IMG/VR virus record: IMGVR_UViG_3300042293_000433 | Source: a virus | Taxonomy: Duplodnaviria; Heunggongvirae; Uroviricota; Caudoviricetes | Length of the DNA: 64,000 nt | Direction: 5' to 3' (one strand) | Shown: in pieces, positions 1,104-53,011 of the stretch | Layout of the letters: every line of letters begins with the position of its first letter | Numbering within the stretch: position 1 is the first letter of the stretch | Position numbers and translations under genes: made by a program | Notes under the pieces: generated by a model | What the model was told of the DNA's origin: nothing | What the model saw: only the letters and a program-made list of their open reading frames with translations | The model's database searches: none

Positions 1104-1658
1104 TTAGTTATTGGTTGTATCGGTTAAAGGAACTATTGATTGTCTATTTGCATCACCATCACTTATAACTCTGATTGAATTGATTTCAGCTAAATCCGTT
1201 AAAGTGACCTTTTCTATATTAATACCCCACTCTTTAACTTTAGCACCAATTGTTTTTGTTAGTTCAACTTCAATATCAACCAGGTCTTCCCAATTCCTTT
1301 CCTCAATAATTTCTCTAATCATTGCACCGGTTGTATCTACTAATACATCAGTTGGGTGTGCTAACTTAGTTAAGAATAAATATGCATCTTCAATATCATA
1401 TCTAACAATTGCTCTTACTACTATGTTTCTATAATCTAATGATGTGATTGATTGTGGATGTAAATGTATTGATTGTGTTACAACGGTTTGATGCCATATT
1501 GAATCTACAAATGGTATTTTCCAATGTAGACCTGGATCTTTTATATCATTAAACTTACCAAATCTTAACACCAATGCTTTTTCCCACATATCCACTACAA
1601 ATACGGGCATTATTGAATGTCCAAATTGTTGTATTACTGCTATTAATTTATCAAACAT
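1104..1658 (-). CDS. SPFH/band-7 (stomatin/prohibitin-like) domain protein
   Basis: 184 aa; ALVLRFGKF...PGLHWKIPFVDSI...RAIVRYDIEDAYLF pattern typical of SPFH domain; TCGTATCTTTA motif 15 nt upstream. Confidence 0.6.
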   Translation of the reverse strand: MFDKLIAVIQQFGHSIMPVFVVDMWEKALVLRFGKFNDIKDPGLHWKIPFVDSIWHQTVVTQSIHLHPQSITSLDYRNIVVRAIVRYDIEDAYLFLTKLAHPTDVLVDTTGAMIREIIEERNWEDLVDIEVELTKTIGAKVKEWGINIEKVTLTDLAEINSIRVISDGDANRQSIVPLTDTTNN

Positions 1659-1672: not shown

Positions 1673-1683
1673 TAAAGATACGA
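1673..1683 (-). promoter_or_regulatory. conserved upstream motif TCGTATCTTTA (sense), candidate promoter element
   Basis: plus-strand taaagatacga; 15 nt upstream of ATG of 1104..1658; same motif recurs upstream of at least 7 other genes. Confidence 0.4.
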
Positions 1684-1776
1684 TAAATTTATGAGAATAC
1701 CAAATCCTATTGAGATTTTCTATTCTTAGCTTTTACATCAATAGTGCCTTTGGTATTAGTTTTACCAACTGAATTA

Positions 1777-2047: not shown

Positions 2048-2251
2048 TTATTTAGATTTTGTTTCTTTTGCTTTTTGCTCTGCTAAATAATCACCTAATA
2101 CTTTACTACCTCTCTTAGTAGTCATTAATTCTTTTTGTGAAACTCTTATACCATTACGATATACTCTTAATTCTAGCTCCTCACCATTTTTTAACATAAA
2201 GAAATGATATTCAGGCTTAAAGAATTGCTTTATTTTTCTAAATATATTCAT
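2048..2251 (-). CDS. hypothetical protein
   Basis: 67-aa ORF, basic. Confidence 0.35.
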   Translation of the reverse strand: MNIFRKIKQFFKPEYHFFMLKNGEELELRVYRNGIRVSQKELMTTKRGSKVLGDYLAEQKAKETKSK

Positions 2252-2281
2252 AGTTTAAATATACAATAAGTTATCCATTAT

Positions 2282-2320
2282 ACCAAACAAAAATAGGGGT
2301 ATTTTTTAATTACCCCTATT
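2282..2320 (-). terminator. rho-independent terminator (minus strand)
   Basis: 9-bp perfect stem ataggggta/tacccctat (2293-2301/2311-2319) followed on minus-strand RNA by UUUUUGUUUGG; lies just downstream of the 3' end of CDS 2343..2678. Confidence 0.5.
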
Positions 2321-4205: not shown

Positions 4206-4553
4206 CTACCATTCAATCAACTTAGCAATAGGCCATGCTGGATTTGAAATACTTACTAAATGTGCTTCTTCTACTAATCTTTCTTTTAATTCATCATCTT
4301 CGATGTCTAAAAAATTAACATGTTCGTATTTCACTAATTCGTCTTCAGCAATTGTTATTGTTGAAAATGTATTATCTTTATTTAATACAATAAGTCCAAA
4401 TAATTTTGCTTCTACTAATTCTACATTTCCAGCGTGCTCTAAAAATGGTTCAAATGCTTCTAAATTTATCATTTTGTTTTGTTTTATATAAATATATGTT
4501 TTTATTATTACAATGTAACTACACCACGTTTTTGTACAACTTTTGTTGCACAA
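4206..4553 (-). CDS. hypothetical protein
   Basis: 115-aa ORF. Confidence 0.4.
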   Translation of the reverse strand: MCNKSCTKTWCSYIVIIKTYIYIKQNKMINLEAFEPFLEHAGNVELVEAKLFGLIVLNKDNTFSTITIAEDELVKYEHVNFLDIEDDELKERLVEEAHLVSISNPAWPIAKLIEW

Positions 4554-5239
4554 TCATTTGCGTATTCAATACTAACTTCTATACTTTTTGTTTTTAAATA
4601 ACTAATTACTAATGAAGCCATAAAGGTATCACCTGCACCACTCAAATCTCTAACCTCAATATCGTTGTTAACCGGATATGTAATACCATCATACATTGCA
4701 CCTCGTTCACTCATTGTTATAATTAATCTTTCTCGCCACATTTCGTATTCCTGTCCTTTACAATTTTCCCACTCAACTTCATTTATCTTAATGAATGTAT
4801 AATTACGCATTTCTGCTGATAATGGTTTCTTTGTATCTATAAAAGTTAATGGATGTGAATCACTAATCAATTTCAAATCTGATAATGATAGAAATCCTTT
4901 GTCATAATCACTTACAATAACTGCATCATAATCATTGAATGGAACTCTTTTAACATCAAATGAATTGCTAACCTTATCATTACTGTCAATTCTGATAATC
5001 ATATGATTTGCTTTTTCCTCTACATATCTAGTCTTTGTAATTTGTTCTTTGTTAGTAACCAACTCAACTTTCTCAGCTCCCAACGATTTAAGATTAGCTA
5101 CTACATTACCACTCATACCCATATTGGTAATTGTTCTACTCGGTTCAAATATTGGCACAGGTCCTTCGGGACATAATCTTTTACAATAACCATATACAAA
5201 TACATCAGTACAACTATCACCGATAACTAAAACTTTCAT
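4508..5239 (-). CDS. hldA: D-glycero-beta-D-manno-heptose-7-phosphate kinase (HldE domain I / HldA-like, PfkB fold)
   Basis: 243 aa; VLVIGDSCTDVFVYG..RLCPEGPVPIF, GMSGNVVANLKSLGA, VIVSDYDKG, DLSGAGDTFMASL align by eye to E. coli HldE N-domain blocks (VVGDVMLDRYWYG..ISPEAPVPVV, GGAANVA, LSDYAKG, GAGDT). Confidence 0.8.
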   Translation of the reverse strand: MKVLVIGDSCTDVFVYGYCKRLCPEGPVPIFEPSRTITNMGMSGNVVANLKSLGAEKVELVTNKEQITKTRYVEEKANHMIIRIDSNDKVSNSFDVKRVPFNDYDAVIVSDYDKGFLSLSDLKLISDSHPLTFIDTKKPLSAEMRNYTFIKINEVEWENCKGQEYEMWRERLIITMSERGAMYDGITYPVNNDIEVRDLSGAGDTFMASLVISYLKTKSIEVSIEYANDCATKVVQKRGVVTL

Positions 5240-6757: not shown

Positions 6758-7886
6758 TTAATTTATCTATTTCTAATATTGTATTTGTAGGATTAAAACT
6801 ATCCATTATAAACTTATAATTCTTTTCTAATCTTTGTTGAACACTATCCGATTCATATATTGCCTTAACTTTATCAATTGATAATTCATTGATTCGTTTT
6901 AAAGCATCTACAAATAGTTCTATTCTTTGTGTTTCCGTTTTATTATCATCCCAACCAATTTCTAATCCAAATACATCTTCAAATGTTTCTATTCCATATT
7001 GTCTCAATGCTGAGTTAAATCCATTACATTGTAAAGATAAGAATATATTTTTACATAACCAAGATCTAATTGTTTTTTCTGTTAATCTTAAATCATCCCC
7101 ACTATCACCACTGCTCTCAATAGTAAATGAAATATATGAATCTAATGAGTTTGTATTGATACTATCATACATATCATTTGTATCTGAACTTTGTATTTGT
7201 CCTAATGCTACCGCATCTTTGTTCTCATATATAAAAAACTCATTTACAAATTGATTTAAGTATTCGATATCAATTACTAAATCATCATTACCACTACGTC
7301 CCCCACCAGGTCTATTTCTATAATTAATAAAATCTTCTATTGTAGAGAGATTACCAAACGTATCTTTTTTTATTATATTACCAAAGGTATAATAACATTC
7401 GTTTAATTCAATACCTTTTTTTTTGAGCAATTCAAATATTTTAAGTCTTCGTAAATTTATAGACCTATTAAAGAAATTAAACTTCTTTGTTCTATTATTG
7501 TTTGGTATATATGCTACTTTTGAAAACAAGTTTGTAAATGGATAACATCTATTTTTAAATGATATATCATTTTCAATACTATACACATCTAAATGCGTTG
7601 TTAAGAAATATATAGTATGATTTGTATTTCTATTTTCTACAATTGCTTTACGCCTATGTTCATTACAATATTCATGTTTAATAAACAAAAATATATTTAA
7701 TTTTAAATTTGGATTTACTGATTCATTTATCTTATCGATTGTATCTAATGTAATAAATAATACATCATTATCTTTAAGATTATCAATAAAACTAAAATCA
7801 TTATATTGTAATTCTATAAGATTATACCCAATTGATTCAAAATATTTAAAGTCTAAACCATAAATAGAATCGTAATAAAATGTCAT
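6729..7886 (-). CDS. GT10-like (alpha-1,3-fucosyltransferase family) glycosyltransferase paralog
   Basis: 385 aa; FTIESS...LTEKTIRSWLCKNIFLSL resembles FucT motif FENS....YxTEK(L/F)W; shares this plus FNFFNR..RLKIFELL block with 22263..23360 and 23353..24609. Confidence 0.4.
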   Translation of the reverse strand: MTFYYDSIYGLDFKYFESIGYNLIELQYNDFSFIDNLKDNDVLFITLDTIDKINESVNPNLKLNIFLFIKHEYCNEHRRKAIVENRNTNHTIYFLTTHLDVYSIENDISFKNRCYPFTNLFSKVAYIPNNNRTKKFNFFNRSINLRRLKIFELLKKKGIELNECYYTFGNIIKKDTFGNLSTIEDFINYRNRPGGGRSGNDDLVIDIEYLNQFVNEFFIYENKDAVALGQIQSSDTNDMYDSINTNSLDSYISFTIESSGDSGDDLRLTEKTIRSWLCKNIFLSLQCNGFNSALRQYGIETFEDVFGLEIGWDDNKTETQRIELFVDALKRINELSIDKVKAIYESDSVQQRLEKNYKFIMDSFNPTNTILEIDKLIGYENNVFK

Positions 7887-11277: not shown

Positions 11278-11278
11278 A

Positions 11279-11596: not shown

Positions 11597-12713
11597 TATT
11601 AATTACATATGGAAAACGGGGTATACCATCAGGTGTTAAATTAAAATACTTAATCGTTGCTTGCTTACCGATTAGTTTCTTTTTACTCTTTAACATCTCA
11701 GCCGTTTCATCCCAAGTTCCTTTTACATTTGATTTGAAAGGTTTACCATCAATCGTTTCAAATACCATATAACCAGCAGTTCCAGTTCTATTACCTTCAC
11801 CCTCTACGATATCTAAAATAGTATATTCATCATCAACAAACGATTTATGTTTTAATAAGTTCTTACTTCGTTTGTTTTCATACTTACCATTCGTTCTTAA
11901 CATCTGACCTTCGTAACCTTTCTCTACATACCCACCATATAATTCCATAACTTCATCTTCATTATCAACTTTATATGTTTGTACTATTCTACAATACTTA
12001 CCTACTTGTGAAAATGTTTCAAATAGTATTCCTAAATCATACATTCTTTTTACAAAGTTATTATCTGAACTAGGTAAATCGTATATGTGATACTCTATAC
12101 TTTTTTCACTTTCAATTAAATCCTCTTTAGTTGGTTTTGTTTTTTTAACCAAAGATACAATCTTATTGAAATCATTAGCGAACTTATCGGCATATAACTC
12201 ACCATCTAATATCAAATCAGGATTCATTACAAATACATGCCATAAGCTATACATGATATGTTGCGCTGAAAGAATAGGTTTACCATTTCTGCTAAACATA
12301 CCATCTTTTGTCACTATACAACGAATACCATCTAACTTAGCTTGCGAATAAATTGGATATGTAACCTTATCTTTACTATCTTCCCATTTAGCGGCTAACA
12401 TTGGTTCAAAGTATTGTGTTTTGTTTATGTGTTTGATATTCTCAAAGTAACCACTCTCTAACTTCTTTGTTCGTTTAGCTACCGCCTCTGCCATCGTTTG
12501 TTCTTTATCCGTAGTTTCATTTGCTCTACCAATATTCTTACCATAACAAATTGTCCACTCATTCGTAGTAATAGCACCGCCAACTTGTCCACTATGGGTT
12601 CGGTATTTATTACCTACTACTTCAATTGTCCATTCTTGCGTTGCACCGGTCTTTGTTTTTTTGTAAATAGTTTCTAATTTCATATTATAAATTTTTGTTA
12701 TATTAGGAGTCAT
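11574..12713 (-). CDS. lig: ATP-dependent DNA ligase
   Basis: 379 aa; adenylation motif I KLDGIRCIV (KxDG), YEGQMLR and downstream nucleotidyltransferase/OB-like blocks; true start may be the second ATG (12683) because the first 30 nt belong to a duplicated leader. Confidence 0.85.
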   Translation of the reverse strand: MTPNITKIYNMKLETIYKKTKTGATQEWTIEVVGNKYRTHSGQVGGAITTNEWTICYGKNIGRANETTDKEQTMAEAVAKRTKKLESGYFENIKHINKTQYFEPMLAAKWEDSKDKVTYPIYSQAKLDGIRCIVTKDGMFSRNGKPILSAQHIMYSLWHVFVMNPDLILDGELYADKFANDFNKIVSLVKKTKPTKEDLIESEKSIEYHIYDLPSSDNNFVKRMYDLGILFETFSQVGKYCRIVQTYKVDNEDEVMELYGGYVEKGYEGQMLRTNGKYENKRSKNLLKHKSFVDDEYTILDIVEGEGNRTGTAGYMVFETIDGKPFKSNVKGTWDETAEMLKSKKKLIGKQATIKYFNLTPDGIPRFPYVINIDRNEYE

Positions 12714-12753
12714 TCTCTCGACTCAATACATAAAGATACGACTTTATATTGGA
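12681..12753 (-). repeat. 73-bp duplicated 5' leader (copy A; copy B at 21569..21641)
   Basis: 70/73 identical to 21569..21641; sense strand ends exactly at an ATG and contains TCGTATCTTTA plus a GAGTC/GACTC inverted repeat. Confidence 0.8.
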
Positions 12754-12790
12754 TTGGCAATGCCCTAAGTGAACTAATTTTGAAAGTTTT

Positions 12791-13182: not shown

Positions 13183-13183
13183 G

Positions 13184-13483
13184 TTATATTAATTCATCTA
13201 TTAAAAATCGGATAAAGATATCTCTATCCCCTATACTCTCTATTGGTAGGTAGTGTCTATTACCTGTCTCTTGGCAATACATAAGATAATCACCATTGGA
13301 TGTCTTAACCCTACCAATGCTAAAGTTAAACATATCAAAGGGTGAGCCATTATGTACTACTTTAATAAGATAGTTATCCTTCGACTTAGTCACATAGTGT
13401 ATCTTCCAATGGCCAACGTATGTCCCCGTAAGAGAATCTATGTTTTTTATTGTAAGCATATTATAATTTTTCAAGTTTAGCAA
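13184..13483 (-). CDS. MLTIKNI-family small protein (paralog 4, N-extended)
   Basis: 99 aa; MLNLKNYNMLTIKNIDSL: the motif occurs twice; DNA around second Met near-identical to paralogs 1 and 3. Confidence 0.45.
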   Translation of the reverse strand: MLNLKNYNMLTIKNIDSLTGTYVGHWKIHYVTKSKDNYLIKVVHNGSPFDMFNFSIGRVKTSNGDYLMYCQETGNRHYLPIESIGDRDIFIRFLIDELI

Positions 13484-13724
13484 TTACATCCATTACATCT
13501 TCGGGTCTTAAATAACCAAGTACATCATTCGTAATCGGCGTATCGTAACATATTTCACCATCTTTGAAAATAGCTAATTCATACAATCCGATATCACCAC
13601 CATACGAGTGCGGACTTTGTACTACTGATACTTCATATCCATTATCTAATTTAGTTCTACTTACAATACCAAAATCAGCACCCATAGGGTTTGTTTTAAA
13701 TTCAATATCTTTAAATGTTTTCAT
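13461..13724 (-). CDS. hypothetical protein
   Basis: 87-aa ORF. Confidence 0.4.
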   Translation of the reverse strand: MKTFKDIEFKTNPMGADFGIVSRTKLDNGYEVSVVQSPHSYGGDIGLYELAIFKDGEICYDTPITNDVLGYLRPEDVMDVIAKLEKL

Positions 13725-13777
13725 AATTTGTTTTATTTAATCTATAAAGGTAGTTAATTTTTCTGATACTACCAAAT

Positions 13778-21415: not shown

Positions 21416-21601
21416 TTATTTACTATCGTTATGTTTAAATACTATTTCAAACTTTCTATCTTCAATAGAAAAACTATCTAAAACGATTTGTAATTGTTTA
21501 GAAAGATTATCTAATTTAGACTCATCCGTAAATTCAAACTCAATGTTGAACTGAAATGTTACATTACTCATATTATAAATTTTTGTTATATAAGGACTCA
21601 T
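21416..21601 (-). CDS. small hypothetical protein (likely starts at internal ATG 21571; first 10 codons lie in duplicated leader)
   Basis: 61-aa ORF MSPYITKIYNM...; N-terminus encoded by the 73-bp repeat shared with the ligase gene. Confidence 0.4.
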   Translation of the reverse strand: MSPYITKIYNMSNVTFQFNIEFEFTDESKLDNLSKQLQIVLDSFSIEDRKFEIVFKHNDSK

Positions 21602-21641
21602 TCTCTCGACTCAATACATAAAGGTACGACTTTATATTGGA
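21569..21641 (-). repeat. 73-bp duplicated 5' leader (copy B)
   Basis: 70/73 identity with 12681..12753. Confidence 0.8.
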
Positions 21642-21690
21642 CTTTGAACAGTCAAAGGTAACTATTTTTAGGTTTTTCAAAGATTTTTGA

Positions 21691-21758: not shown

Positions 21759-21780
21759 CATTGAGAATCAATAAGTTATA
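21759..21780 (-). promoter_or_regulatory. operator-like palindromic element
   Basis: plus-strand cattgagaatcaataagttata, 18/22 to consensus. Confidence 0.4.
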
Positions 21781-21783
21781 ACT

Positions 21784-21805
21784 CTTTGATAATCAATGGG
21801 TTAGG
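21784..21805 (-). promoter_or_regulatory. operator-like palindromic element
   Basis: plus-strand ctttgataatcaatgggttagg; core ttgataatcaa is a perfect inverted repeat. Confidence 0.45.
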
Positions 21806-25793: not shown

Positions 25794-25806
25794 TTCTGCT
25801 CCCCGT
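25771..25806 (-). terminator. rho-independent terminator (minus strand)
   Basis: stem gggga/tcccc (loop 10 nt) followed on minus RNA by UUUAUUUUUUUAAU; placed at the 3' end of CDS 25816..27663, overlapping the C-terminal codons of 25458..25793. Confidence 0.4.
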
Positions 25807-25815
25807 TTGTATGTT

Positions 25816-27663
25816 TTAAACTACATTTTGTGTAGATATATTCATTAATGGATTTTCCAAATCTAAATTATCAATTGTGTTAGTACCACGTTTTGATTTA
25901 GATTTAATATGTCCTTTATGTTTAGTATTCCCAAATAATTCTGCTTTTCTCTTTGAAGCATTTCCAAATGATGGTAAAAACGATGTGTATGAAGGCATAG
26001 TAGTTGCATCAGTCCAATTAATGTCACTAAAGTAACCATCCTCTTGCTTATTTTCCATTTTAGAAATAAAAGCACTTTTCAAATTTTCATTAACTACATT
26101 AACAATTGTATCGTGTTTATCATGCCATCCGGTTACAAAACTATCTCCAATATGTTTGCGAAATGCTTTGTCTATATTATTCTTATCATATTGTGATTCC
26201 TTACATTTTGTTTCAATTGATTTGAAGCTTTTCAAAAAGTTAGAATCATCCATTTCTTCTTTAGAGGTAAAATATCTTCGACTAGATTGGTTTACCTTAT
26301 CAAGTGTTTGTTTACCATCTTCTGTTTCCCAATAATATGTATTGATTGGATGCATTGGATTGTTATAATACTCACATATTGCAATAAAATCAGTAATAAC
26401 GTTTTCTAAATTACTTAATTCTATCTTTGGTTTCCATATTCTACCAGACGAATCCATATATTGAAATACTTTAGTTATATAGTTATATAAAAATATAGAT
26501 AAAATAAACATTGATGGTTTTGATATTATCGCAGTTAACGCTTCATTATTATTTTCGTTACTTCCAATTTTGTTAAAAACTTTAGCAACTTTTAATAAAT
26601 CTGATTTCATACTCTTTAAATCCGATTCGCTTATTTCACAATCTTTGCTTAAGATAGATGATAACATTTGTTGTTCATTCTTAAATCCAAATCTTTGTAA
26701 TTGCTTTATATCATAATAACATGTATCTGCTATAACTGATATGAGATATTCAAATCCACCATCTTTCTTTTGAAACTTACCTGTTCCAAATTTTACTGGA
26801 TTTGCTTTACCATATAACATCTCCAATATCCCACCTACTGAACTATCAGTTGTTTCTGATGCAATATTATCTCTAACAAAAATTGTAAATGGATTCTTTG
26901 TTAACTTAAACTTATGTAGAAATTCTGACCAACTAGTGGATGAATTACTATACCATATAAATTTGGCTATATCTTCAAATGAATCTGCTTCAGTAATTTC
27001 AATTATATTGATAGGGCATTCACTTAAATATTTTAAATATATATTCGTTGTTTCTTCAACTGAAAGTCCTTTGAATTCTTTAATTTGTTTTGAAGGATTT
27101 GTTGAGGTACATTTTGTTTCTAAATCTTTTAAAGATTCAAATTTTATTTCCTTATCATTAACTATAAATGGTGCAAATTGAATTTCAGCATTTGTTTTTG
27201 GTAATTTACCAGTCAAATCACTTATATATTGTGTCATTCTATGTTGCCCATTAACTGAAAAATATTTATCTTTAAATCTCTTTTCAGAAAAATAGTTAAT
27301 ATCATCTTTCAAATAAGCAATAGATGTATCATATATTGCCTTTTGCGATAATTCTGCATTTAATTTTGAAATTTCTTTAGTAGCTAATTCACTTTTCAAT
27401 ACTTTGATAATTGTTTTCGCTGAAATATAATATACCGGCGATGATGTACCAAATCCATTGGTAGCCGCCGTAACCATATTTTTACGAACTGCTTTCTTTA
27501 GTTCTTTAATATATCTATTGATTCTAGTTGAATTAATAAATTTATCTTTATTTTCAAATATATATCTTAAATCACTACCCAATGCTTCAACTGCAATTCT
27601 TAATGATTTTTTGATTTCTATTTTCTTTTTTCCATTTGAAATGGTAAAAATTGTTTTTAACAT
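25816..27663 (-). CDS. large hypothetical protein, possible DUF262/ParB-like nuclease-domain protein
   Basis: 615 aa; FSVNGQHRMTQYI resembles the (I/V)DGQQR(L/T)T motif of DUF262; weak, from memory. Confidence 0.5.
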   Translation of the reverse strand: MLKTIFTISNGKKKIEIKKSLRIAVEALGSDLRYIFENKDKFINSTRINRYIKELKKAVRKNMVTAATNGFGTSSPVYYISAKTIIKVLKSELATKEISKLNAELSQKAIYDTSIAYLKDDINYFSEKRFKDKYFSVNGQHRMTQYISDLTGKLPKTNAEIQFAPFIVNDKEIKFESLKDLETKCTSTNPSKQIKEFKGLSVEETTNIYLKYLSECPINIIEITEADSFEDIAKFIWYSNSSTSWSEFLHKFKLTKNPFTIFVRDNIASETTDSSVGGILEMLYGKANPVKFGTGKFQKKDGGFEYLISVIADTCYYDIKQLQRFGFKNEQQMLSSILSKDCEISESDLKSMKSDLLKVAKVFNKIGSNENNNEALTAIISKPSMFILSIFLYNYITKVFQYMDSSGRIWKPKIELSNLENVITDFIAICEYYNNPMHPINTYYWETEDGKQTLDKVNQSSRRYFTSKEEMDDSNFLKSFKSIETKCKESQYDKNNIDKAFRKHIGDSFVTGWHDKHDTIVNVVNENLKSAFISKMENKQEDGYFSDINWTDATTMPSYTSFLPSFGNASKRKAELFGNTKHKGHIKSKSKRGTNTIDNLDLENPLMNISTQNVV

Positions 27664-27717
27664 ACTTTTAAATTTTAGTGTTTATTAAATATACGAAATA
27701 TAATTGGATTTACCAAA

Positions 27718-28335: not shown

Positions 28336-28380
28336 ATTTAAAAAATAAAGGAGGGTACAAATTGTACCCCCCTTAGTTAT
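28336..28380 (-). terminator. rho-independent terminator (minus strand)
   Basis: 13-bp stem aaggagggtacaa/ttgtacccccctt (1 mismatch) with 1-nt loop; minus RNA continues UUUAUUUUUUAAAU; directly after 3' end of AAA+ ATPase gene. Confidence 0.55.
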
Positions 28381-28429: not shown

Positions 28430-29662
28430 TTACCAAACAATAGTATCGTCATTCGCATCTTCCTCTTTCACTTCGTTGAATAACTTTTCACCTTCATTCT
28501 CATCTACTACGAATTTTTGTATAAGTTGCTTAATGTAAGTACGCTCACTATCCATACCACCATCTTGTGAATAGAACGGGAAGATTGCTACCTCAGCTGC
28601 TTCTAACAAACTGAAACCATCATACAACAAACCTGCCATCTCTACTGAAATACGAGTTGATACAGCAGTTGTCAATTTACCCGCCTCACCTTTGATTTGG
28701 TCTCTAGTGTGTGCCGCAATCTCTGCTACTGATTTCAAATTGTAATCATTCGTATCAGGATATAACATCTTTAACAATTCATATTCCTGCTCAGCATTCA
28801 ATACATCTACCTCAATTGTCACGAATCTATCTAACAATGCTCTATCCATTACACGCGTTGCAGTATATTCAGAACCGATGTTTGCAGTTGCAATAAAGGT
28901 AACACCTTCTGCCACCTTAACAATTGGTGAATTTTCTTGCTCATCTAATCGTAAGTATCTTTGTGTTTGGTCTAACACTGTCATTAGGATATTAGCGGCT
29001 TCTGGATGAGCTCTACTTAATTCATCTAATAACACAACTGCGTAAGGTGTCTTAATAGCTTTAACGAATGCACTCTCACTAAAATAAGTACCACTTGCTT
29101 TGTTAAAGTGTGTGTTACCAATTAATGCCGCCCTCGGGTCTTGCGTCGCACCTAAGTTAAAGTAATGAAACGGTCTTTTCAATGCCGCAACTAATGCTTT
29201 AGCTGCCATTGTCTTACCACTACCCGCAGGTCCTGTCATCATAATATTTCGCGCTCGAACCGCTGAACGTAATAAATATTTCCACTTCAACTCGTTCATA
29301 ATTAAGTTAGCAGGTTTTAACGCCATACCCTCTTTATGAATGAAATCGATAACATCTTTATGCTCCGTTGGATTTTCTACGATAGTTTCAGCGATATCCG
29401 TATTCATCGGCTTAACCAACATATCCGTATATTCTTGCATTTCTACCATACGATAGCTTTTAGCTCCGTTTTTGTTTACATGCGCACGAATTGCTTTATT
29501 TTGTGCTGATGCTTTTTTTCGTAAAGAACTACCTACTATTGTAGAATCTGAACTACTTAATACATCACCCGCAGTATTAACTAAGTTAAAACGGGATTTA
29601 AGATTTTCTACTTTGTACACTTCATTTGTGTAACCATACTCTTGTGTTGCTTTTTTACTCAT
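28430..29662 (-). CDS. MoxR/CobS-like AAA+ ATPase (AAA_5)
   Basis: 410 aa; Walker A MMTGPAGSGKTMAAKAL, Walker B VVLLDELSRAHPEAANILMTVLDQ. Confidence 0.8.
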   Translation of the reverse strand: MSKKATQEYGYTNEVYKVENLKSRFNLVNTAGDVLSSSDSTIVGSSLRKKASAQNKAIRAHVNKNGAKSYRMVEMQEYTDMLVKPMNTDIAETIVENPTEHKDVIDFIHKEGMALKPANLIMNELKWKYLLRSAVRARNIMMTGPAGSGKTMAAKALVAALKRPFHYFNLGATQDPRAALIGNTHFNKASGTYFSESAFVKAIKTPYAVVLLDELSRAHPEAANILMTVLDQTQRYLRLDEQENSPIVKVAEGVTFIATANIGSEYTATRVMDRALLDRFVTIEVDVLNAEQEYELLKMLYPDTNDYNLKSVAEIAAHTRDQIKGEAGKLTTAVSTRISVEMAGLLYDGFSLLEAAEVAIFPFYSQDGGMDSERTYIKQLIQKFVVDENEGEKLFNEVKEEDANDDTIVW

Positions 29663-29708: not shown

Positions 29709-29719
29709 TAAAGATACGA
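29709..29719 (-). promoter_or_regulatory. conserved upstream motif TCGTATCTTTA (sense)
   Basis: plus-strand taaagatacga 47 nt upstream of ATG of 28430..29662. Confidence 0.4.
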
Positions 29720-29802
29720 AATTCTGCCCACACTACCAAAACTATTTATAACCTATTGAATATCAACACATTATACACATCCATTTAGGGTAATGTATAA
29801 CA

Positions 29803-29824
29803 CATTGATAATCAATTAGTTAAG
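29803..29824 (-). promoter_or_regulatory. operator-like palindromic element (best copy)
   Basis: plus-strand cattgataatcaattagttaag; core attgataatcaat is a perfect 13-bp palindrome. Confidence 0.5.
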
Positions 29825-29837: not shown

Positions 29838-31982
29838 TTACGCTTTTTTCATAAAAAGCTCATTCATTGTTTTAATGATAGGAACGATTTGTTTAACATC
29901 AATAAAACGGCTGTCACTTCCGTACATTGTTTTAAAGTTGTCAGATGAACTACTATATGAACTGCCACCAACAAAGTAACTCATAACTTGTATACCCATA
30001 TCTTTGATTTGTCCTACCATTTTCTTAGTGTGTAACAAAGCGTTTCTACCACTATAAGAACATTGTTGATTTGAGAATGTTGGCTCACCATCACATATGT
30101 TTAAGAAATAAGAATCCATATCTTTGTTGCTCTCTACAAAATGTTTAAGTATCGCTTGATAACATAAACCTTCAGGTGTTGTACCATTGGCGTGTAATGC
30201 AGGAAACAATCTCTTAACTTTCTCAAACTTATCAAATCTACTATCATACGCAATACATATGTAAGGTTTATCACCCCACGTACCTCTGATAGAAACTTGT
30301 ACATTTAAGTTACTTACCATTGATGCTGCTTTACAAATAGCAATTGTTACGGCTAATGTATCATCCCACACACTACCACTCATTGAACCACTACCATCAA
30401 TAGTAACGTGCAACATTACTTTCTTAAACCTATCTACTTCTTTGGTACTGAATACATTTACATAATCATATCCTAATGCTGCTACCATTCTCTTATCAAT
30501 TCTACCATTCTTTTGGCGTGGATTGATTGTTTCTCTTTCCTCACTACGAACTGCAATACGCTTACCTAAGATTGTACCCATTACGATACCTCTTTGTAAA
30601 GTATCAGCATTCCAGTTATTCCATTTATCATTCCAAAAACTAGCGAAAGGGAACGAACTATCTTGCATCAATCCTTCGGTCATTTTCTTAGATACGATAC
30701 ATTGAACCGGTTGAATATATCCACCATTCTCTAATTTAGTATCACCTACGGATTGCATTTCAGTTCCACTCTCAGCCATTTGGTCTAAGGTTTCATCCTC
30801 TTTCTTAGTTAATCCTTTCTTTTTGATATTGTTATTAACGAAGTCCTTTTGCTTTTGGATTTGTTTATCCAATTGTTTCTTAGCAGTATCACTCATTAAA
30901 TCTTTACCATTACCAGTTTGTGAAGCACCACTCGTAGAGTCACCTTTCTCACCCATCACAGGTGCATCACCACCACTACCACCCATTTCATCGTTTTGTT
31001 TATCACCTGCCTCTGCTCCAGTTTCATTACCTGCTTCGTTTACATCTGCAGGGTCACCATTACCCTTACCTTTACCATCTTTACTTAAATCAACTAAGAT
31101 ATGTTGTAAGATAGTGTTGGTAATCTTTTCTGCTACCTCTAATGAATCGGTTGTATTTTTTAATCTACTAATATTCTTAAGGTCTAATGTTTCGTAGATT
31201 TCTTTCAAACCTTTCAATTTGTTAAGGTCAGTATTTTGATTTGTGATATTGATAATACGGAACATATACGATTGTAATGTTTCATCCGTATATTCATCAC
31301 TTATCAATCCTTTGTCAATAGTCTTATCATAGAAATACTCATCATACAATGCTCTATAATAGTCTCTATAACCTGGACAAGTATTGTAGATATATTGGTC
31401 AATCCTTCTATCCTCTACAAAGTTTACCAATGATTTAACTACATCAAATAATTGTTCTTTGTTTCGATAATGTTGTGTACCATCAAAAGAAGGGTCATTT
31501 ACATCTAAACCCGCTGCTTTTGCAAAGTTATTAAACATTTCGGTTGGTGCAGAATAAGCAGGCATTAATTCAAAGTCCGTAAGAACAATGTGTGATGCTT
31601 CGTGCAATGCCAAACCTACCGCGATATCAAACTTTTCAGGTTTAACCTCAGCTGATAATACTACCGATTTACCATCAGTATAAGAATCACCTTTACGCGA
31701 AAACTTTACAGGAATGTTTTTGTTTGTAAGAATGTTCACAAAGTTAGCAATTGCTCTCCTATGTGCATTCAACTTAATAAGGTCAGCAGTACTGCTTTCT
31801 ACCTTATTGTACTCTTTTGGTTTCCAAGTATCACCACCCCAATATGTAGTAGGTGTGTCATAGGAACTCCATTCATCAGCCCAAAATGAACTCGCTGATT
31901 TTTTCTCTTTCTTTTTACTAGTGTACGAACCTTTAGTTAAATAATCTAAAGTACCCGTCTTAAAACTGTCATACCAACTCAT
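29838..31982 (-). CDS. von Willebrand factor A domain protein (CobT-like partner of the AAA+ ATPase)
   Basis: 714 aa; MIDAS motif HVTIDGSGSMSGS (DxSxS) in C-terminal third; central Gly/Asp/Lys low-complexity linker; immediately upstream of MoxR-like gene. Confidence 0.7.
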   Translation of the reverse strand: MSWYDSFKTGTLDYLTKGSYTSKKKEKKSASSFWADEWSSYDTPTTYWGGDTWKPKEYNKVESSTADLIKLNAHRRAIANFVNILTNKNIPVKFSRKGDSYTDGKSVVLSAEVKPEKFDIAVGLALHEASHIVLTDFELMPAYSAPTEMFNNFAKAAGLDVNDPSFDGTQHYRNKEQLFDVVKSLVNFVEDRRIDQYIYNTCPGYRDYYRALYDEYFYDKTIDKGLISDEYTDETLQSYMFRIINITNQNTDLNKLKGLKEIYETLDLKNISRLKNTTDSLEVAEKITNTILQHILVDLSKDGKGKGNGDPADVNEAGNETGAEAGDKQNDEMGGSGGDAPVMGEKGDSTSGASQTGNGKDLMSDTAKKQLDKQIQKQKDFVNNNIKKKGLTKKEDETLDQMAESGTEMQSVGDTKLENGGYIQPVQCIVSKKMTEGLMQDSSFPFASFWNDKWNNWNADTLQRGIVMGTILGKRIAVRSEERETINPRQKNGRIDKRMVAALGYDYVNVFSTKEVDRFKKVMLHVTIDGSGSMSGSVWDDTLAVTIAICKAASMVSNLNVQVSIRGTWGDKPYICIAYDSRFDKFEKVKRLFPALHANGTTPEGLCYQAILKHFVESNKDMDSYFLNICDGEPTFSNQQCSYSGRNALLHTKKMVGQIKDMGIQVMSYFVGGSSYSSSSDNFKTMYGSDSRFIDVKQIVPIIKTMNELFMKKA

Positions 31983-32301: not shown

Positions 32302-32601
32302 TTAATTGCTTTTCATACCTTTACATACCCCATATCCTTGTCTTTGTGATAATCTATATAATCGTGCAGCATCTGCAGCAGGCATAATTTGTATTTCGTT
32401 ACCCGTCTTATGATTTGCTATTGCAACCCCACCAACTTTTTCTACCGAACTACAATTGATACAATTTCGATATCCGTATTTTTCATATCTAAGTTGCGGC
32501 ATATCGTTTTTACATTTAATACATTTAATCATTAATAACTTACCCATAATTATTATTGTTTGATGAAACATAAAGATACGATAAATATCTGAAACCGCCA
32601 A
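32302..32601 (-). CDS. zinc-ribbon protein (probably starts at internal ATG 32547)
   Basis: CIKCKN...CINCSS paired CxxC; TCGTATCTTTA motif lies inside the long ORF at 32571-32581, implying the shorter 81-aa form. Confidence 0.45.
   Translation of the reverse strand: MAVSDIYRIFMFHQTIIIMGKLLMIKCIKCKNDMPQLRYEKYGYRNCINCSSVEKVGGVAIANHKTGNEIQIMPAADAARLYRLSQRQGYGVCKGMKSN
32571..32581 (-). promoter_or_regulatory. conserved upstream motif TCGTATCTTTA (sense)
   Basis: plus-strand taaagatacga 24 nt upstream of internal ATG 32547. Confidence 0.4.
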
Positions 32602-32677
32602 ACATTTTGGAAAGTATTTTGTAAGGTACTGATATTCAGTTAGTTACACATTAGCGTTTATTCTAATATAGATAAGT

Positions 32678-32699
32678 CATTGATTATCAATTAGTTAGG
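32678..32699 (-). promoter_or_regulatory. operator-like palindromic element
   Basis: plus-strand cattgattatcaattagttagg; 13-bp palindrome attgattatcaat. Confidence 0.5.
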
Positions 32700-33185: not shown

Positions 33186-33344
33186 TTACTTAGTAGTAAT
33201 TGTAGAATCTACTTTTGTAGAATCCGTAACTACTGATGTTGAATCGGTTTGAACTGACGTTGAATCCGTTTTCACTTCTGTTGTTGTTGCTCCACCACAT
33301 GCTGTTAAAGATGCGATAGCAACAATTGCTAACATTTTTTTCAT
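33186..33344 (-). CDS. small lipoprotein with TDSTSV repeats (52 aa)
   Basis: manual translation MKKMLAIVAIASLTACGGATTTEVKTDSTSVQTDSTSVVTDSTKVDSTITTK; lipobox LTAC; followed by strong terminator. Confidence 0.4.
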   Translation of the reverse strand: MKKMLAIVAIASLTACGGATTTEVKTDSTSVQTDSTSVVTDSTKVDSTITTK

Positions 33345-33415
33345 TTGTTTTGTTTTTGTTATTGTTATTTAATGTTTATATGTCTAAGATACTTAATATA
33401 TTCGAAACTACCAAA

Positions 33416-33664
33416 TTATTTGGTTGTTTTCTTTTTTGCACTAGTTGTAGGTACTTTAGCCGTTGCTTTTTTAACTTTAGCCTCAACTTCAGCTACTTTA
33501 ACTTCAGCTACTTTTTTAACGTTTTTAACTTTGTTCAAATCGCTTCTTAAATTAGTTGCGGTATCTGGTGCTACTTTAGCTACGTCTGATACAAATGAAT
33601 CTACTTGTTTTTCTAATTCGGTTGCTTTTGCAAACAATCCTTTAATGAATGTAAATAATCCCAT
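33416..33664 (-). CDS. small Lys/Ala/Val-rich basic protein
   Basis: 82 aa; KVKNVKKVAEVKVAEVEAKVKKATAKV; TCGTATCTTTA motif 33 nt upstream. Confidence 0.45.
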   Translation of the reverse strand: MGLFTFIKGLFAKATELEKQVDSFVSDVAKVAPDTATNLRSDLNKVKNVKKVAEVKVAEVEAKVKKATAKVPTTSAKKKTTK

Positions 33665-33696: not shown

Positions 33697-33707
33697 TAAA
33701 GATACGA
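33697..33707 (-). promoter_or_regulatory. conserved upstream motif TCGTATCTTTA (sense)
   Basis: plus-strand taaagatacga. Confidence 0.4.
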
Positions 33708-33712
33708 AAGGT

Positions 33713-34030
33713 TTATTGATTTTCCAAATATTTTAACCCAAAAAATGCGTAATTATCGATAACTGATTGACGCTCACCCATTTGTATAGCTATTTCCTCA
33801 CTAGAAACAATGGCATCAACGGGACATTCCGGTAAACAAGCACTACAATCTATACATTCTATTGGATTTATGTATAATTGTTTACCTTTCTTATCCTCAT
33901 CACTCATTCCAATCGATTCTAATCCCATTCCTGTCGTATTTATCGGTCCATGTATACAATCCATAGGACAAACTTTTAAACACCCACCATCGATACAACT
34001 GATACAACTAGACGTAATTATAAAACTCAT
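33713..34030 (-). CDS. 2x[4Fe-4S] dicluster ferredoxin-like protein
   Basis: 105 aa; CISCIDGGCLKVCP and CIDCSACLPECP (two CxxCxxCxxxCP motifs). Confidence 0.7.
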   Translation of the reverse strand: MSFIITSSCISCIDGGCLKVCPMDCIHGPINTTGMGLESIGMSDEDKKGKQLYINPIECIDCSACLPECPVDAIVSSEEIAIQMGERQSVIDNYAFFGLKYLENQ

Positions 34031-35373: not shown

Positions 35374-35601
35374 TTATTCAGCGTTTACTACTTCAATAAT
35401 TTTACTTTCTTTAGCACCGGTTACTTCATAATCAACGTTAATCGCTGAATCTACGAATAATTTAACTACTCTAGCTTCTGCTTCGGTTACACTCATTGCA
35501 TCTACTAAATAGTTTTCTTTTGTTTTCTTAATTTTAGATACACCTTTACCATTATCTACTTCGTGGTGCATCGTTACTTGTACTTCATAATACTTTGCCA
35601 T
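35374..35601 (-). CDS. hypothetical protein
   Basis: 75-aa ORF; variant motif TGTATCTTTA 30 nt upstream. Confidence 0.4.
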   Translation of the reverse strand: MAKYYEVQVTMHHEVDNGKGVSKIKKTKENYLVDAMSVTEAEARVVKLFVDSAINVDYEVTGAKESKIIEVVNAE

Positions 35602-35639
35602 AACTTTTATTTTTAGTTTGTTTATAAATTAAAGATACA

Positions 35640-36266
35640 TTAAATTTCTGAATCTTCCAAATCTTCTTCTATATTTTCTTCTTCATCCTCATCACCCACT
35701 ATACCCTGCTCCACATATTGACCATCTTTTGGTATTTTTCTTTTACCTATTAGTAGAAAGAAACAATTATAACATAGAAATCTTAGATTTTCTAATTTAT
35801 GGTTCTGCCAATTACCATCAAAGAAATCTAATAATAGGGGTGCTTTACCATCCGTTACTCTTACTTCCTCAAACCCACAACAGCTACATTGTTCAGGAAA
35901 CACATCATTTTTAATCAATCTCCTCTTTAGCTTATAGATAGGATAGTTCGGATGCATACCTTGTAGAATCTCACTTAAAGGGTATTTACCAACCGTCAGC
36001 TTTAATCTACGTTCAATAGGAACATTCGTAGGGTTATAATCAATTTCAAATATACCATACATCTTTGCATATTTTTTATATGTGTTGTATGATACACCCA
36101 ATGTCCTTGCCGTATCTTTTGCCGAACGAGACCTACCTTGTGCTTCCGTAATTTCGGCTGCTAATAATTGTCTACTACCTAATCCTCTTTTTAATGTTCC
36201 CCTAGATGAGTTATCTACTTTTTTATATGTTTCATCTAAATTGGGAAAGAAACCTTCATTTTCCAT
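35640..36266 (-). CDS. HTH plus HNH endonuclease
   Basis: 208 aa; HTH-like TARTLGVSYNTYKKYAK; C-terminal CSCCGFEE...DGNWQNHKLENLRFLCYNCF (HNH Cys/His/Asn arrangement); acidic tail. Confidence 0.55.
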   Translation of the reverse strand: MENEGFFPNLDETYKKVDNSSRGTLKRGLGSRQLLAAEITEAQGRSRSAKDTARTLGVSYNTYKKYAKMYGIFEIDYNPTNVPIERRLKLTVGKYPLSEILQGMHPNYPIYKLKRRLIKNDVFPEQCSCCGFEEVRVTDGKAPLLLDFFDGNWQNHKLENLRFLCYNCFFLLIGKRKIPKDGQYVEQGIVGDEDEEENIEEDLEDSEI

Positions 36267-36270: not shown

Positions 36271-36909
36271 TTATTTAAACTTCAACCCAGTCAATTTTTC
36301 TATATCAACTAATTCAACTTTGTTATTATATATTCCATCGGGTTTAGATTGGTCATTCTCAAATAAGAAAGCCATCCATTCATTTGATTTTTTATAGTAA
36401 ACCACTTTCCAACATTGTTTTGGAACTGATACTTTACCTATCTTTTTTATCTCTCCCACATTACCTGCCCATATATGAACCGAATCATCTTTCACTGCCC
36501 ACTCTCTAGTCATTACTTCTAATGATTTCCAATCTCCTGCATTTAGTCTATGTGTTTGTGCCGACATATTACTCATATAGAACGATTCAATTTGAACACC
36601 TGCCGTTTGACATTGATTGGATGCTGCAGGACTCATATGTCCTCTATCATATCCACTACCTACATAGTCTGCTTTAATATCGGTTTCAAGTATTGCTTGT
36701 GGGTCTGGCTGAAATGCATCTCTTCTAGGTAATGGATTTGGACAACCAACTTTTGCTTTAGTTTCCCACCACTCTACCATTACTGGATATTTTTTTGACT
36801 TACTAAAATGTGATGTATAGTTTGTATGTTTCAAAATAACTACATCTTGTGCTCTACCACCTATTGCAAAAAATACACAAATCGTAACAAGTAATACTAA
36901 TTTTTTCAT
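36271..36909 (-). CDS. secreted DNA/RNA non-specific endonuclease (NucA/Serratia nuclease family)
   Basis: 212 aa; signal peptide MKKLVLLVTICVFFAIGGRAQD; catalytic block GYDRGHMSPAA (DRGH). Confidence 0.7.
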   Translation of the reverse strand: MKKLVLLVTICVFFAIGGRAQDVVILKHTNYTSHFSKSKKYPVMVEWWETKAKVGCPNPLPRRDAFQPDPQAILETDIKADYVGSGYDRGHMSPAASNQCQTAGVQIESFYMSNMSAQTHRLNAGDWKSLEVMTREWAVKDDSVHIWAGNVGEIKKIGKVSVPKQCWKVVYYKKSNEWMAFLFENDQSKPDGIYNNKVELVDIEKLTGLKFK

Positions 36910-37923: not shown

Positions 37924-38223
37924 TTATATTTTAAATTTCCAAAATTGATACCATTTCTTTTTTGGGGGCGGCGTGCATAAACTAAATGGATTATCCCCAA
38001 ATGATACTGAATCTAAATACTTTGTCGATATCATATTTAAAAATACCTCATGGTACTTTTCAGGTATAGTATCAAAGTCTGCTTCAATCTTTATATCTAA
38101 ACTAATAGCCCCATCATTTGGTGTAATTAACTTTAAGCTATTCTGTACACTTACTATACTAGCGGTCTTAATATTAATATTACTACCCCCACCTAAATAA
38201 ATGTCCGTTTCTTTTTTACTCAT
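37924..38223 (-). CDS. hypothetical protein
   Basis: 99-aa ORF. Confidence 0.4.
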   Translation of the reverse strand: MSKKETDIYLGGGSNINIKTASIVSVQNSLKLITPNDGAISLDIKIEADFDTIPEKYHEVFLNMISTKYLDSVSFGDNPFSLCTPPPKKKWYQFWKFKI

Positions 38224-38260
38224 AATTCTTAATTATACTTAAATATACTACTAAGTTTTG

Positions 38261-38605
38261 TTATTTCCAAAAAATACTTACTAAAATTATAGATACGGCT
38301 AACATACATTGTACCAATACTTTAAGTGTAAATGGTTGATGAAAGTGATATGGATATAATATCATCCCCACAAATACCCCAGTAACAAAGAATAAAAATC
38401 TATTACTCCACATACTACCGGCAAATCCAGCTACACCATATTCGGATGCTTTAATCCAAAGAAAAGTACATACAACTGCTAATAGATAAGGTATTGGTGA
38501 TTTAATCCAATTTGGTGTTTTAAATTGCCAATACATAATATACCAATGTCCAAACCCACCTGCCATAAATAACAGGAATGATTGTAAAATTTTAATTAAA
38601 TTCAT
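38261..38605 (-). CDS. small 4-TM membrane protein (paralog of 9473..9823)
   Basis: 114 aa; shares GxxGxxWxxRxLxF motif and topology with 9473..9823. Confidence 0.5.
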   Translation of the reverse strand: MNLIKILQSFLLFMAGGFGHWYIMYWQFKTPNWIKSPIPYLLAVVCTFLWIKASEYGVAGFAGSMWSNRFLFFVTGVFVGMILYPYHFHQPFTLKVLVQCMLAVSIILVSIFWK

Positions 38606-52066: not shown

Positions 52067-52939
52067 CTATTTAAATAAAGAACACAATTTTCTCTCTTTA
52101 AATTCACACCATCTACAATTTTTATTTTTCTCACCGGGAACTGGCTCAAAATTTGCTTGTAAATTATAATTACCATCCTCTAAAAATACTGAATCTACAA
52201 ACTGCATAAAATCCTTATATCCTTTTAATGTAGTATTAGTTCCATGCGCAGGTACAAATGCTGACATATGTGGAATTGGAAATTCGTAATCTTTGTTTAT
52301 CTTTCTTTTGATGATATGATATTCTACTTTAATTTTTTCAATATCTATCTTATACTGAATAGATAGGAAATATTTGTAAAGTAATAATTGATTGATTTTG
52401 GTTTTATCCTTCTTCATATCTTTTGTCCAACCACCTCTACTTGTCTTAAAATCTATAATATAATATTCACCACTTTCTTTATGCTTCAAAAGTACATCGA
52501 TGAATCCCATATAACTTACATTCTCTTTTACTTTTAAGTTAAGTGGTTTTTCTACTCCTACTAACTCCCATCCTTTCTTTGAGAACAATCTATCACCATG
52601 TTTCCTAAACCAATTTAAAATCTCAATACCATCCCCATAGAACTCCTCTAATTCTTCTTTGGTACAAACTACTTCACCATCACTAAACTTCTCTTGTTCC
52701 TTCTTAAAATTAGATTTAAGAGATTCTAATAACATTAGGTTTAGGTCTAATTGATTTGCTTGTTTTTTACTTACACCATAGAAAACCGTAAGGTAATGTT
52801 GTAAAACCTCGTGCATGGCCGTCCCAAATACCATATTGATATTTGATTTAGACTCACTTAGTTTATCTATGTATGCTAATTTGTATTGTTGTGGACAATT
52901 TGCCCACATTGTGTATTGTGAATAACTTACTCTTGCCAT
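52067..52939 (-). CDS. Cas4/RecB-like PD-(D/E)XK nuclease with Fe-S cysteine set
   Basis: 290 aa; N-terminal Cys (WANCPQQY), IIDFKTSRGGW (D..K core), C-terminal CRWCEFKERKLC (CxxCx7C). Confidence 0.6.
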   Translation of the reverse strand: MARVSYSQYTMWANCPQQYKLAYIDKLSESKSNINMVFGTAMHEVLQHYLTVFYGVSKKQANQLDLNLMLLESLKSNFKKEQEKFSDGEVVCTKEELEEFYGDGIEILNWFRKHGDRLFSKKGWELVGVEKPLNLKVKENVSYMGFIDVLLKHKESGEYYIIDFKTSRGGWTKDMKKDKTKINQLLLYKYFLSIQYKIDIEKIKVEYHIIKRKINKDYEFPIPHMSAFVPAHGTNTTLKGYKDFMQFVDSVFLEDGNYNLQANFEPVPGEKNKNCRWCEFKERKLCSLFK

Positions 52940-53011
52940 ATACTCTAATATACGACTATTTACTTAATAAACCAAAAAATTAATAGAATATCAATTACAT
53001 ATTATAAAAAA

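Follow-up and report, generated by a model that had tools for sequence, protein, structure and literature searches.

Boxes upstream of genes in an uncultured large phage as a probable -7 element of Bacteroidota-type sigma-A promoters

What would read a short box that recurs just before the genes of an uncultured phage? The stretch of DNA considered here (the window) is 64,000 nucleotides (nt) of the Caudoviricetes record IMGVR_UViG_3300042293_000433 from IMG/VR, 64 kb of what is probably a much larger genome. The box is TCGTATCTTTA, which was noticed at 1673-1683 and before several other genes in a reading made without database searches (the sequence-only reading), and which was proposed there as a possible phage-specific promoter class. 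The analysis reported here leads to a different proposal. With a probability of about 0.8, the box is the -7 element of promoters of the Bacteroidota primary-sigma type (sigma-A, or sigma-ABfr), carried by a large uncultured phage with a Bacteroidota host.

A repeated box and its upstream partner

Five exact copies of TCGTATCTTTA are found in the window, at 1673, 12731, 29709, 32571 and 33697, all on the minus strand, which is the gene strand. Only 0.10 would be expected, and none of 100 shuffled sequences reached five copies, so the repeated upstream box of the sequence-only reading is borne out, at the coordinates it gave. None of the five lies in conserved coding sequence, and the 32571 copy is in coding sequence only through a mechanically extended open reading frame (ORF), 32302..32601. 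Allowing one mismatch raises the count to nine where 2.27 would be expected, and again every match is on the minus strand. Of these, the five exact copies are intergenic, as are the variants at 21619 and 27686. Two one-mismatch boxes on the minus strand, 7032..7042 in coding sequence and 33306..33316 within gene 33186..33344, have no partner at -33 and are not called by the matrix described below; they are probably chance occurrences outside the promoter system. An unbiased word count placed CGTATCTT (5 of 5 copies non-coding), GTATCTTT (6 of 7) and TTTGGTA (7 of 23) among the words most enriched in non-coding DNA, where such words overall are about 5% non-coding (enrichment p ~1e-7); the motif is not equally common inside coding sequence.

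The flanks of the box hold a second block, TTTGG(T/A)A, at a fixed upstream distance. Together they form a bipartite element of 32 nt, TTTGG-N16-TCGTATCTTTA, with the box as its 3' half; more generally it can be written as TTTG-N20-TAnnTTTA. The pattern TTTG-N18-22-TAnnTTTA has 10 matches on the gene strand, nine of which fall in the 5.7% of the window that is non-coding, and the spacer is exactly 20 nt in eight of those nine. A 46-column matrix was built from 19 non-redundant sites taken from related contigs only, which makes it independent of the window. In the window 11 sites scored 10 bits or more, nine of them over 20 bits; every one is on the gene strand, and the antisense strand yielded no such site. 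In 50 simulated sequences the best score averaged 4.1 bits and never exceeded 10.6. Promoters of the E. coli sigma-70 type, with -35 and -10 elements, were also considered and set aside, their consensus not being enriched (106 found, 123.7 expected). A 31-nt form of the element at 28407-28437 was rejected as a site as well, since a terminator lies downstream of it and the matrix does not call it.

The 11 matrix sites, here called class I, are given with the distance from box to ATG and the matrix score; all are on the minus strand. The exact box with TTTGG at -33 is found at 1673..1704 (gene 1104..1658, 14 nt, 33.9 bits), 29709..29740 (the MoxR-like AAA ATPase gene 28430..29662, 46 nt, 25.4 bits), 32571..32602 (the zinc-ribbon gene, 23 nt to ATG 32547, 32.6 bits) and 33697..33728 (gene 33416..33664, 32 nt, 24.4 bits). 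Variant boxes are TTGTATATTTA at 2256..2287 (gene 2048..2251, 4 nt, 30.1 bits), which is directly preceded by a terminator-like hairpin at ~2295-2320, AACTACCTTTA at 13745..13776 (gene 13461..13724, 20 nt, 36.3 bits), TCGTATATTTA at 27686..27717 (gene 25816..27663, 22 nt, 28.5 bits), the AAGTATCTTAG variant at 33384..33415 (gene 33186..33344, 39 nt, 22.0 bits) and ATGTATCTTTA at 35630..35661 (the DUF4494 gene 35374..35601, 28 nt, 34.7 bits). A weaker site, TAGTATATTTA, lies at 38240..38271 (gene 37924..38223, 16 nt, 15.7 bits), and a weak one, TCGTATATTAG, at 52945..52976 before the Cas4-like exonuclease gene 52067..52939 (5 nt, 11.4 bits against the simulated maximum of 10.6); the TATATTAG ending of this last site is common in relatives. 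The sites are spread over 1.6-38 kb, with one more at 52.9 kb.

Four of these sites, 2256-2287, 13745-13776, 33384-33415 and 38240-38271, were absent from the earlier list. Its one-mismatch variants hold for genes 21416..21601 and 25816..27663. The boxes before 35374..35601 and the Cas4-like gene, ATGTATCTTTA and TCGTATATTAG, differ from TCGTATCTTTA at two positions and not one, and the matrix supports both as sites. The box claimed before the DRGH (Endonuclease_NS) nuclease gene 36271..36909 has to be given up as a member: a terminator immediately precedes it, no -33 element is present, and the sequence agrees with a second motif, TATATTTATATG, which is discussed below. The distance to the start codon, put earlier at 15-45 nt, is 4-46 nt as measured, or 47 nt when counted to the second ATG of a repeated cassette.

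With the zinc-ribbon start placed at ATG 32547, all 11 sites fall between genes. The sequence-only reading had argued, from the position of the box inside ORF 32302..32601, that this gene starts at an internal ATG, and this is supported: the promoter lies within that ORF, and the ATG overlapping the box (32571) is absent from relatives, which have TTTGgg there. The promoter itself is kept in relatives, as canonical TAACTTTG or TATCTTTG. Homology to a relative's gene starts at ~32541, and conserved coding sequence runs from MIKCIKCK, downstream of the box. This comparison makes ATG 32547 the most likely start, with the ATG 15 nt beyond it as an alternative.

In the published numbering TTTGG occupies -36 to -32, the TCG of the box is T-15 C-14 G-13, and the rest runs T-12 A-11 T C T T T A-5. 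TTTGG with the 20-nt spacer is present in all 11 sites, and is absent or shifted in the two boxes of the cassette. All 13 boxes (the 11 matrix sites and the two cassette boxes) read TA[TC][CA]TT, with T at -6 in 11 of them and A there in two TTAG variants.

Reading by a Bacteroidota-type sigma factor

Promoters of the Bacteroidota primary sigma factor have TTTG at -33 and TAnnTTTG at -7, a consensus from Bayley et al. 2000 as given in PMC7366714. In F. johnsoniae the -7 element has been refined to TAHHTTTG at -12 to -5 (Baez 2019, PMC6847099), and the start site lies 4-5 nt past it (PMC6847099, PMC9723704). The box had been said to resemble but not to match the Bacteroidota -7 element; with T-12, A-11, no G at -10 or -9, and T-8 T-7 T-6, it does fit TAHHTTTG at these positions, the one deviation being A for G at -5. 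What had been missed is the TTTGG partner exactly 20 nt upstream of TA, where the published spacing is 19-21 nt, and the architecture is therefore the canonical -33/-7 one. Like Bacteroidota sigma-A promoters, the window sites are intergenic, co-oriented with the gene and close to its ATG.

The same measurements bear on the proposal that the box works at the RNA level or as a protein-binding signal, for example as a translational operator in a 5' untranslated region or as a repressor site, and not in initiation. Its closeness to start codons would suit such a role, and palindromes described below show that the intergenic regions do contain DNA of the regulator-binding type. The box is itself not palindromic, though, and it stands a fixed 20 nt from TTTGG but anywhere from 4 to 46 nt from the ATG. 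Two of the boxes are only 4-5 nt from the ATG, too near to fit in a leader, and the box matches a known sigma recognition element base for base, all of which makes this alternative highly improbable.

The phage family gives the same picture as the window. The DNA around ligase homologues, about 600 kb in all, has 23 bipartite matches on the gene strand, 21 of them in the ~11% that is non-coding. Three of the window's promoters (1673, 2256 and 13745) recur as orthologous copies at unchanged ATG distance in the relatives L241 and L259, and the 2256 promoter keeps its 4 nt to the ATG in L241. The promoter of the MoxR-like gene keeps its position in relatives down to ~61% protein identity. The upstream regions of 22 MoxR orthologues, aligned with MAFFT without an anchor, show strong conservation only at TTGG, T-26 and cGTAtnTT, with a variable spacer and leader, which is the footprint to be expected of a bipartite promoter that a sigma factor recognises.

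Octamers were counted across the family using only TTTGG-N17-[CT]GTA as an anchor and leaving the rest of the box free. Among the 107 non-redundant sites found this way the commonest were TATATTTG (20), TATATTAG (14), TATATTTA (13), TATCTTTA (12) and TATCTTTG (10). T is found at -10 in 81% of the sites, at -8 in 90% and at -7 in 91%, and position -5 is G in 56% and A in 30%. Endings in TA and TG stand side by side in single contigs, including the near-identical relative L278. Because G dominates family-wide and both endings share single genomes, the window's TTTA seems to be a permitted variant of the canonical box, and no separate class.

The exact 32-nt pattern was found at 120 or more viral loci, and among the matches listed the unspecified positions are strongly non-random: A at -37 in 83%, T-26 in 83%, and a T-rich run from -21 to -16. 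The fifth base after the box is a purine in 92% of the 128 viral sites listed, which is the published start-site distance (PMC6847099).

Outside phages, TTTGG-N16-TCGTATCTTTA was sought as an exact pattern in bacterial contigs, one genome per species, with at least 120 matching loci. Bacteroidota account for 53 of the 120 chromosomal matches listed, which are not a random sample, and 41 of the 53 are fully non-coding; 12 of these 41 sit 7-47 nt before a called gene. The 53 come from Bacteroidales, Flavobacteriales, Chitinophagales, Sphingobacteriales and Saprospirales. In other taxa (Bacillota and others, Actinomycetota apart) only six of 23 matches listed are non-coding and 17 are coding. The exact pattern in Bacteroidota intergenic DNA and the 56% of family boxes that end in G both argue against the phage-specific class suggested earlier.

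The other 44 of the 120 matches listed belong to a separate conserved element in Solirubrobacterales/Actinomycetota (L127-L236, for example L141 at 4868-4899). It is ~44 nt long, AT-rich and highly conserved (ATTTGCAGGGGATTTGGGATTTYCGCYCGGATTTCGTATCTTTAA), holds the exact phage pattern in genomes of ~70% G+C, and lies ~75-90 nt upstream of a conserved DUF1802 gene. It is a putative regulatory element, in an unrelated phylum.

Translation starts were examined for the same host signal. Shine-Dalgarno-like words are not enriched before the starts of the window (9 of 109, against 7.7% at random positions), and the start regions are A-rich, with 60-68% A at -13 to -10 and 59% at -3. In F. johnsoniae adenines at -3, -6, -12 and -13 favour initiation (PMC6847099), and A-rich starts without a Shine-Dalgarno sequence, together with the short leaders predicted here, are features of Bacteroidota genes. 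Because of the promoter type and these starts, the sequence points to a member of the Bacteroidota as host.

From this we infer how the sites would be read. Region 4 of sigma in the host RNA polymerase holoenzyme would bind TTTGG at -33, and region 2 would bind TAtcTTTA (-12 to -5) 20 nt downstream. T-15 and G-13 in the TCG of the box, and an A-rich stretch from -44 to -37, would add contacts that make the promoters strong. Initiation 4-5 nt past the box would give leaders of ~0-42 nt followed by the A-rich start regions; published median leaders in F. johnsoniae and in the F. psychrophilum start-site map are 24-33 nt, with a few leaderless transcripts (PMC9723704, PMC6847099). The mRNAs of genes 2048..2251 (4 nt) and 52067..52939 (5 nt) would have no leader or hardly any. 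The 11 bipartite sites would then be the heads of short transcription units in a dense one-strand block of small accessory genes and genes of nucleic-acid metabolism.

Several observations weigh against this reading, and they are best considered together with the proposal that the sites form a phage-specific class, in which TTTGG, T-26 C-25, T-15 n G-13 and A-5 are read by a phage sigma factor or by a polymerase retargeted by a co-factor. The canonical TTTG ending is found in none of the 13 window boxes, 11 of which end in TTTA and two in TTAG, and G-5 is nearly invariant in F. johnsoniae promoters (PMC6847099). Positions outside the host consensus are much more conserved at the phage sites than in host promoters: among 80 TAHHTTTG boxes sampled roughly from host genomes, G-13 is found in 31% and T-15 in 41%, against 17 of 19 for G-13 (which was not imposed) and 89% for T-15 in the phage family; TTTGG and T-26 are likewise far above their conservation in the host sample. 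In that sample boxes ending in G number 80 and those ending in A 22. The -33 element, barely visible in F. johnsoniae, is extended in the phage to TTTGG(T/A)A and far better conserved. Because these extra positions are much weaker in the host sample, there is some room for phage-specific tuning or a co-factor. The exact consensus is also largely a family trait, since 72 of the 120 viral matches listed have at least one protein in common with the window, and the non-random choice of the listed chromosomal matches has to be kept in mind as well. Finally, 64 kb of a probably much larger genome were covered here, and a phage sigma gene may lie elsewhere in it: aquatic large phages with predicted Flavobacteriia hosts, a group to which this phage may belong, were reported in 2025 without RNA polymerase genes but with a sigma-factor gene (PMC12619734).

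The architecture, spacing included, is nevertheless exactly that of the host. Across the family the prevailing ending is the canonical TAnnTTTG, and TTTA is found next to it in single genomes. Bacteroidota chromosomes have identical 32-nt sites in their intergenic DNA. Among 25 listed of the 59 Pfam families matched by the 109 window proteins there was no sigma or RNA polymerase family, which is a weak indication, and early phage genes need an unmodified host polymerase, unless a polymerase is injected. A dedicated phage sigma or retargeted polymerase is therefore an unlikely explanation, and Bacteroidota sigma-A remains the preferred reader of the box.

On that reading the promoters are of an already-known kind, with a tighter and slightly shifted consensus, and the mechanism is not new. 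The closest precedent in a phage of a Bacteroidota host is Bacteroides phage Bf12P1, in which promoters were predicted from intergenic -7/-33 elements containing TTTG before co-expressed gene blocks (PMC13139388). Bf12P1 is small and cultured and comes with expression data; the present case is an uncultured large freshwater-type family read by sequence and comparison. T4-type early promoters are similar in another way: they use host sigma, with a consensus tighter than that of the host and an A-rich upstream region (PMC2988021, PMC4122927), and are scattered between small accessory genes on one strand. They differ in being of the -35/-10 type where the phage has the Bacteroidota -33/-7 type. 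By this analogy, in which a tight-consensus host-sigma class serves a block of small accessory genes, the class-I sites are most likely an early or constitutive promoter class.

A mobile cassette, palindromes and a second motif

Two of the boxes belong to a 102-nt repeat (D3) that combines a box with a leader. Copy 1 (12680..12781, minus strand) has its box at 12731-12741, lacks a consensus -33 element and is fused to the ligase gene; what follows the box can be read either as a leader of 49 nt or as 10 codons in frame (M[TS]P[NY]ITKIYN), and then comes a second ATG. Copy 2 (21568..21669, minus strand) has the box TCGTACCTTTA at 21619-21629, before gene 21416..21601. The copies are 85% identical overall and near-identical from 11 nt 5' of the box to the second ATG 47 nt downstream. 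It is at this second ATG that the cassette is joined to four different genes across the window, L241 (~924 and 9276) and L259 (~1826), the two closest relatives and the only ones in which it was found. Most relatives' ligase matches begin at residue 10-11, so the true ligase start is probably the second ATG, 12683. The ligase promoter is not conserved in relatives, nearly all of which have a different upstream gene; it is part of a cassette that is recent and specific to this lineage. The cassette leader could form a hairpin (GAGTC...GACTC), but because copy 2 does not preserve the pairing it is not counted as a structure.

T4-type phages have promoter-early stem-loop (PeSL) cassettes (PMC4122927), and the repeats may likewise serve recombination above all, as conserved promoter-leader sequences that mediate gene shuffling and act as promoters secondarily; this would be compatible with sigma-A promoters. 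A duplicated cassette fused at one point to four genes in three genomes (a small sample) speaks for it, as do the changing gene upstream of the ligase and a synteny that breaks in intergenic regulatory DNA, with promoter-bearing segments as indels. The relatives are indeed mosaic, with gene-sized indels bounded by such DNA: a 154-nt promoter segment before MoxR is missing in L279, and a four-gene indel is bounded by 4478 and 2349. PeSL cassettes are defined by a stem-loop immediately upstream of the promoter, however, and among the 11 bipartite promoters 2256-2287 alone has one. Intrinsic terminators on the gene strand were found at 25785-25804, 28348-28374, 33153-33178, 36937-36959 and 56588-56612, besides the longer-loop hairpin at ~2295-2320, and those other than the hairpin precede genes that have no class-I promoter or have the second motif. 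The long cassette is limited to the two closest relatives, and most class-I sites have only the 32-nt consensus in common, which is short for homologous recombination. Recombination as the main role is therefore a tentative suggestion that we think less probable than not. The likeness to PeSL lies in at least one promoter-leader cassette that is duplicated and joined to different genes in close relatives, and since the defining stem-loop is mostly absent it would be a functional analogy and not membership.

A different 38-nt repeat flanks the ligase region. Its four copies (11252-11289, 11547-11584, 13157-13194 and 13434-13471) are 74-89% identical and lie at the junctions of small adjacent genes, which suggests a paralogous family of small genes, or conserved gene ends and starts.

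Long intergenic regions before three promoters contain a palindrome, TTGATnATCAA (TAACnnATTGATnATCAATnnGTTA), in the extended form TAACnnA-TTGATnATCAA-TnnGTTA. Pairs of these operator-like sites lie upstream of the MoxR promoter (29756..29815, TTGATATTCAA and TTGATTATCAA), of the zinc-ribbon promoter (32629..32690) and of cassette copy 2 (21761..21796). All three exact copies in the window are intergenic, and the pair at 32629..32690 is kept as TTGAnnnTCAA in L280, L281, L283 and L284. Across the family 52 of 56 non-redundant exact copies are non-coding, and 33 have a class-I promoter 20-97 nt downstream. The palindromes look like operators for a dimeric regulator; a Pfam search of the small proteins next to them found no helix-turn-helix regulator.

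Some start codons are preceded, at 12-16 nt, by a second intergenic motif, TATATTTATATA. Its three exact copies (4485-4496, 45710-45721 and 56553-56564) are all non-coding and none is antisense, and variants were found at ~36911-36922, ~52054-52065, ~42797-42808 and ~38616-38627. It holds a -7-like TATATTTA without a -33 partner. It may be a promoter class independent of -33 that depends on an activator or a phage sigma, possibly a late one, reminiscent of the T4 late TATAAATA.

The extra, nearly invariant positions of the class-I sites (TTTGG, T-26 C-25, T-15 n G-13, and a base other than G at -5), together with the paired TAAC-TTGATnATCAA-GTTA palindromes at a subset of them, lead to the idea of a phage-controlled regulon, in which a dimeric phage regulator and/or a sigma co-factor would switch a dedicated promoter class during infection. 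We regard this as doubtful. If true, it would be a system like sigma appropriation in a phage of a Bacteroidota host, and we know of no phage transcription programme of that kind described in Bacteroidota.

The phage, its relatives and the use of the promoters

The window has ~30% G+C and a steadily negative GC skew. A greedy ORF call gave 109 genes that cover 94% of the DNA, with essentially all plausible ones on the minus strand. Most products have no family match. Those that can be recognised are an ATP-dependent DNA ligase, the MoxR-like AAA ATPase, the Cas4-like PD-(D/E)XK exonuclease, the Endonuclease_NS (DRGH) nuclease, an HNH endonuclease, several glycosyltransferases, a TonB-dependent-receptor-like protein, and polynucleotide-kinase-like and RNA-repair-type domains.

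A megablast search of 20 kb against GenBank phages gave no match at the DNA level, and protein searches reached only distant, uncultured huge phages (best matches 484-595 kb), with no cultured relative and no isolate host. Relatives in IMG/VR are numerous, with contigs up to ~290 kb, and one of them, IMGVR_UViG_3300023184_000263, encodes a MoxR-like protein 99% identical to that of the window. These matches indicate that the window is part of a large uncultured phage from an abundant family.

Some other features of the window deserve mention. The TonB-dependent-receptor-like protein (57829-60087) is an outer-membrane beta-barrel (Plug and OMP_b-brl_3 domains) encoded by the phage, an odd conserved phage gene that keeps 82-97% identity in many metagenomic sequences. 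One 825-residue homologue that was checked has an N-terminal CarboxypepD_reg-like domain and a phage-like gene context. Inferring the host from this gene was considered and dropped, because close homologues, the 825-residue forms included, are found in phage-like contexts too. The 533-residue ORF at 53012-54613 is the only region with raised G+C (0.37); it has repeats at 54135-54350 and 53675-53746, namely a long GC-rich one with a 12-nt period (GCnGCn..., alanine-rich when read on the gene strand) and one that is rich in purines (A/G) on that strand.

RNA-repair-type domains are represented by cREC_REC, HAD_SAK_2 ('Swiss Army Knife'), a polynucleotide-kinase-like domain and the ligase, in ORFs 32695-33132, 41037-41861 and 11574-12713 and in one unlocated HAD_SAK_2 ORF. 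Their co-occurrence hints at a phage module for RNA or tRNA repair. ARAGORN found no tRNA genes in the window, and an Rfam scan at gathering thresholds found nothing in it. A tRNA-like minihelix can be drawn at ~32020-32075 on the minus strand (AAGATAG...AGGGGTTCGATTCCCCT.CTATCTT), intergenic and before gene 29838..31982. Its T-arm is perfect, scores 14 bits against that of tmRNA and is enclosed by a 7-bp acceptor-like stem.

For the family, the most direct consequence concerns the host. The promoter architecture and the starts without a Shine-Dalgarno sequence would assign this abundant family of uncultured, large, freshwater-type phages to the Bacteroidota. The matrix can be used to annotate transcription units across the family and to correct gene starts, as for the zinc-ribbon gene and probably the ligase. 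With their tight consensus, the sites are also candidates for strong, compact promoters in the genetics of Flavobacteriia and Bacteroidia.

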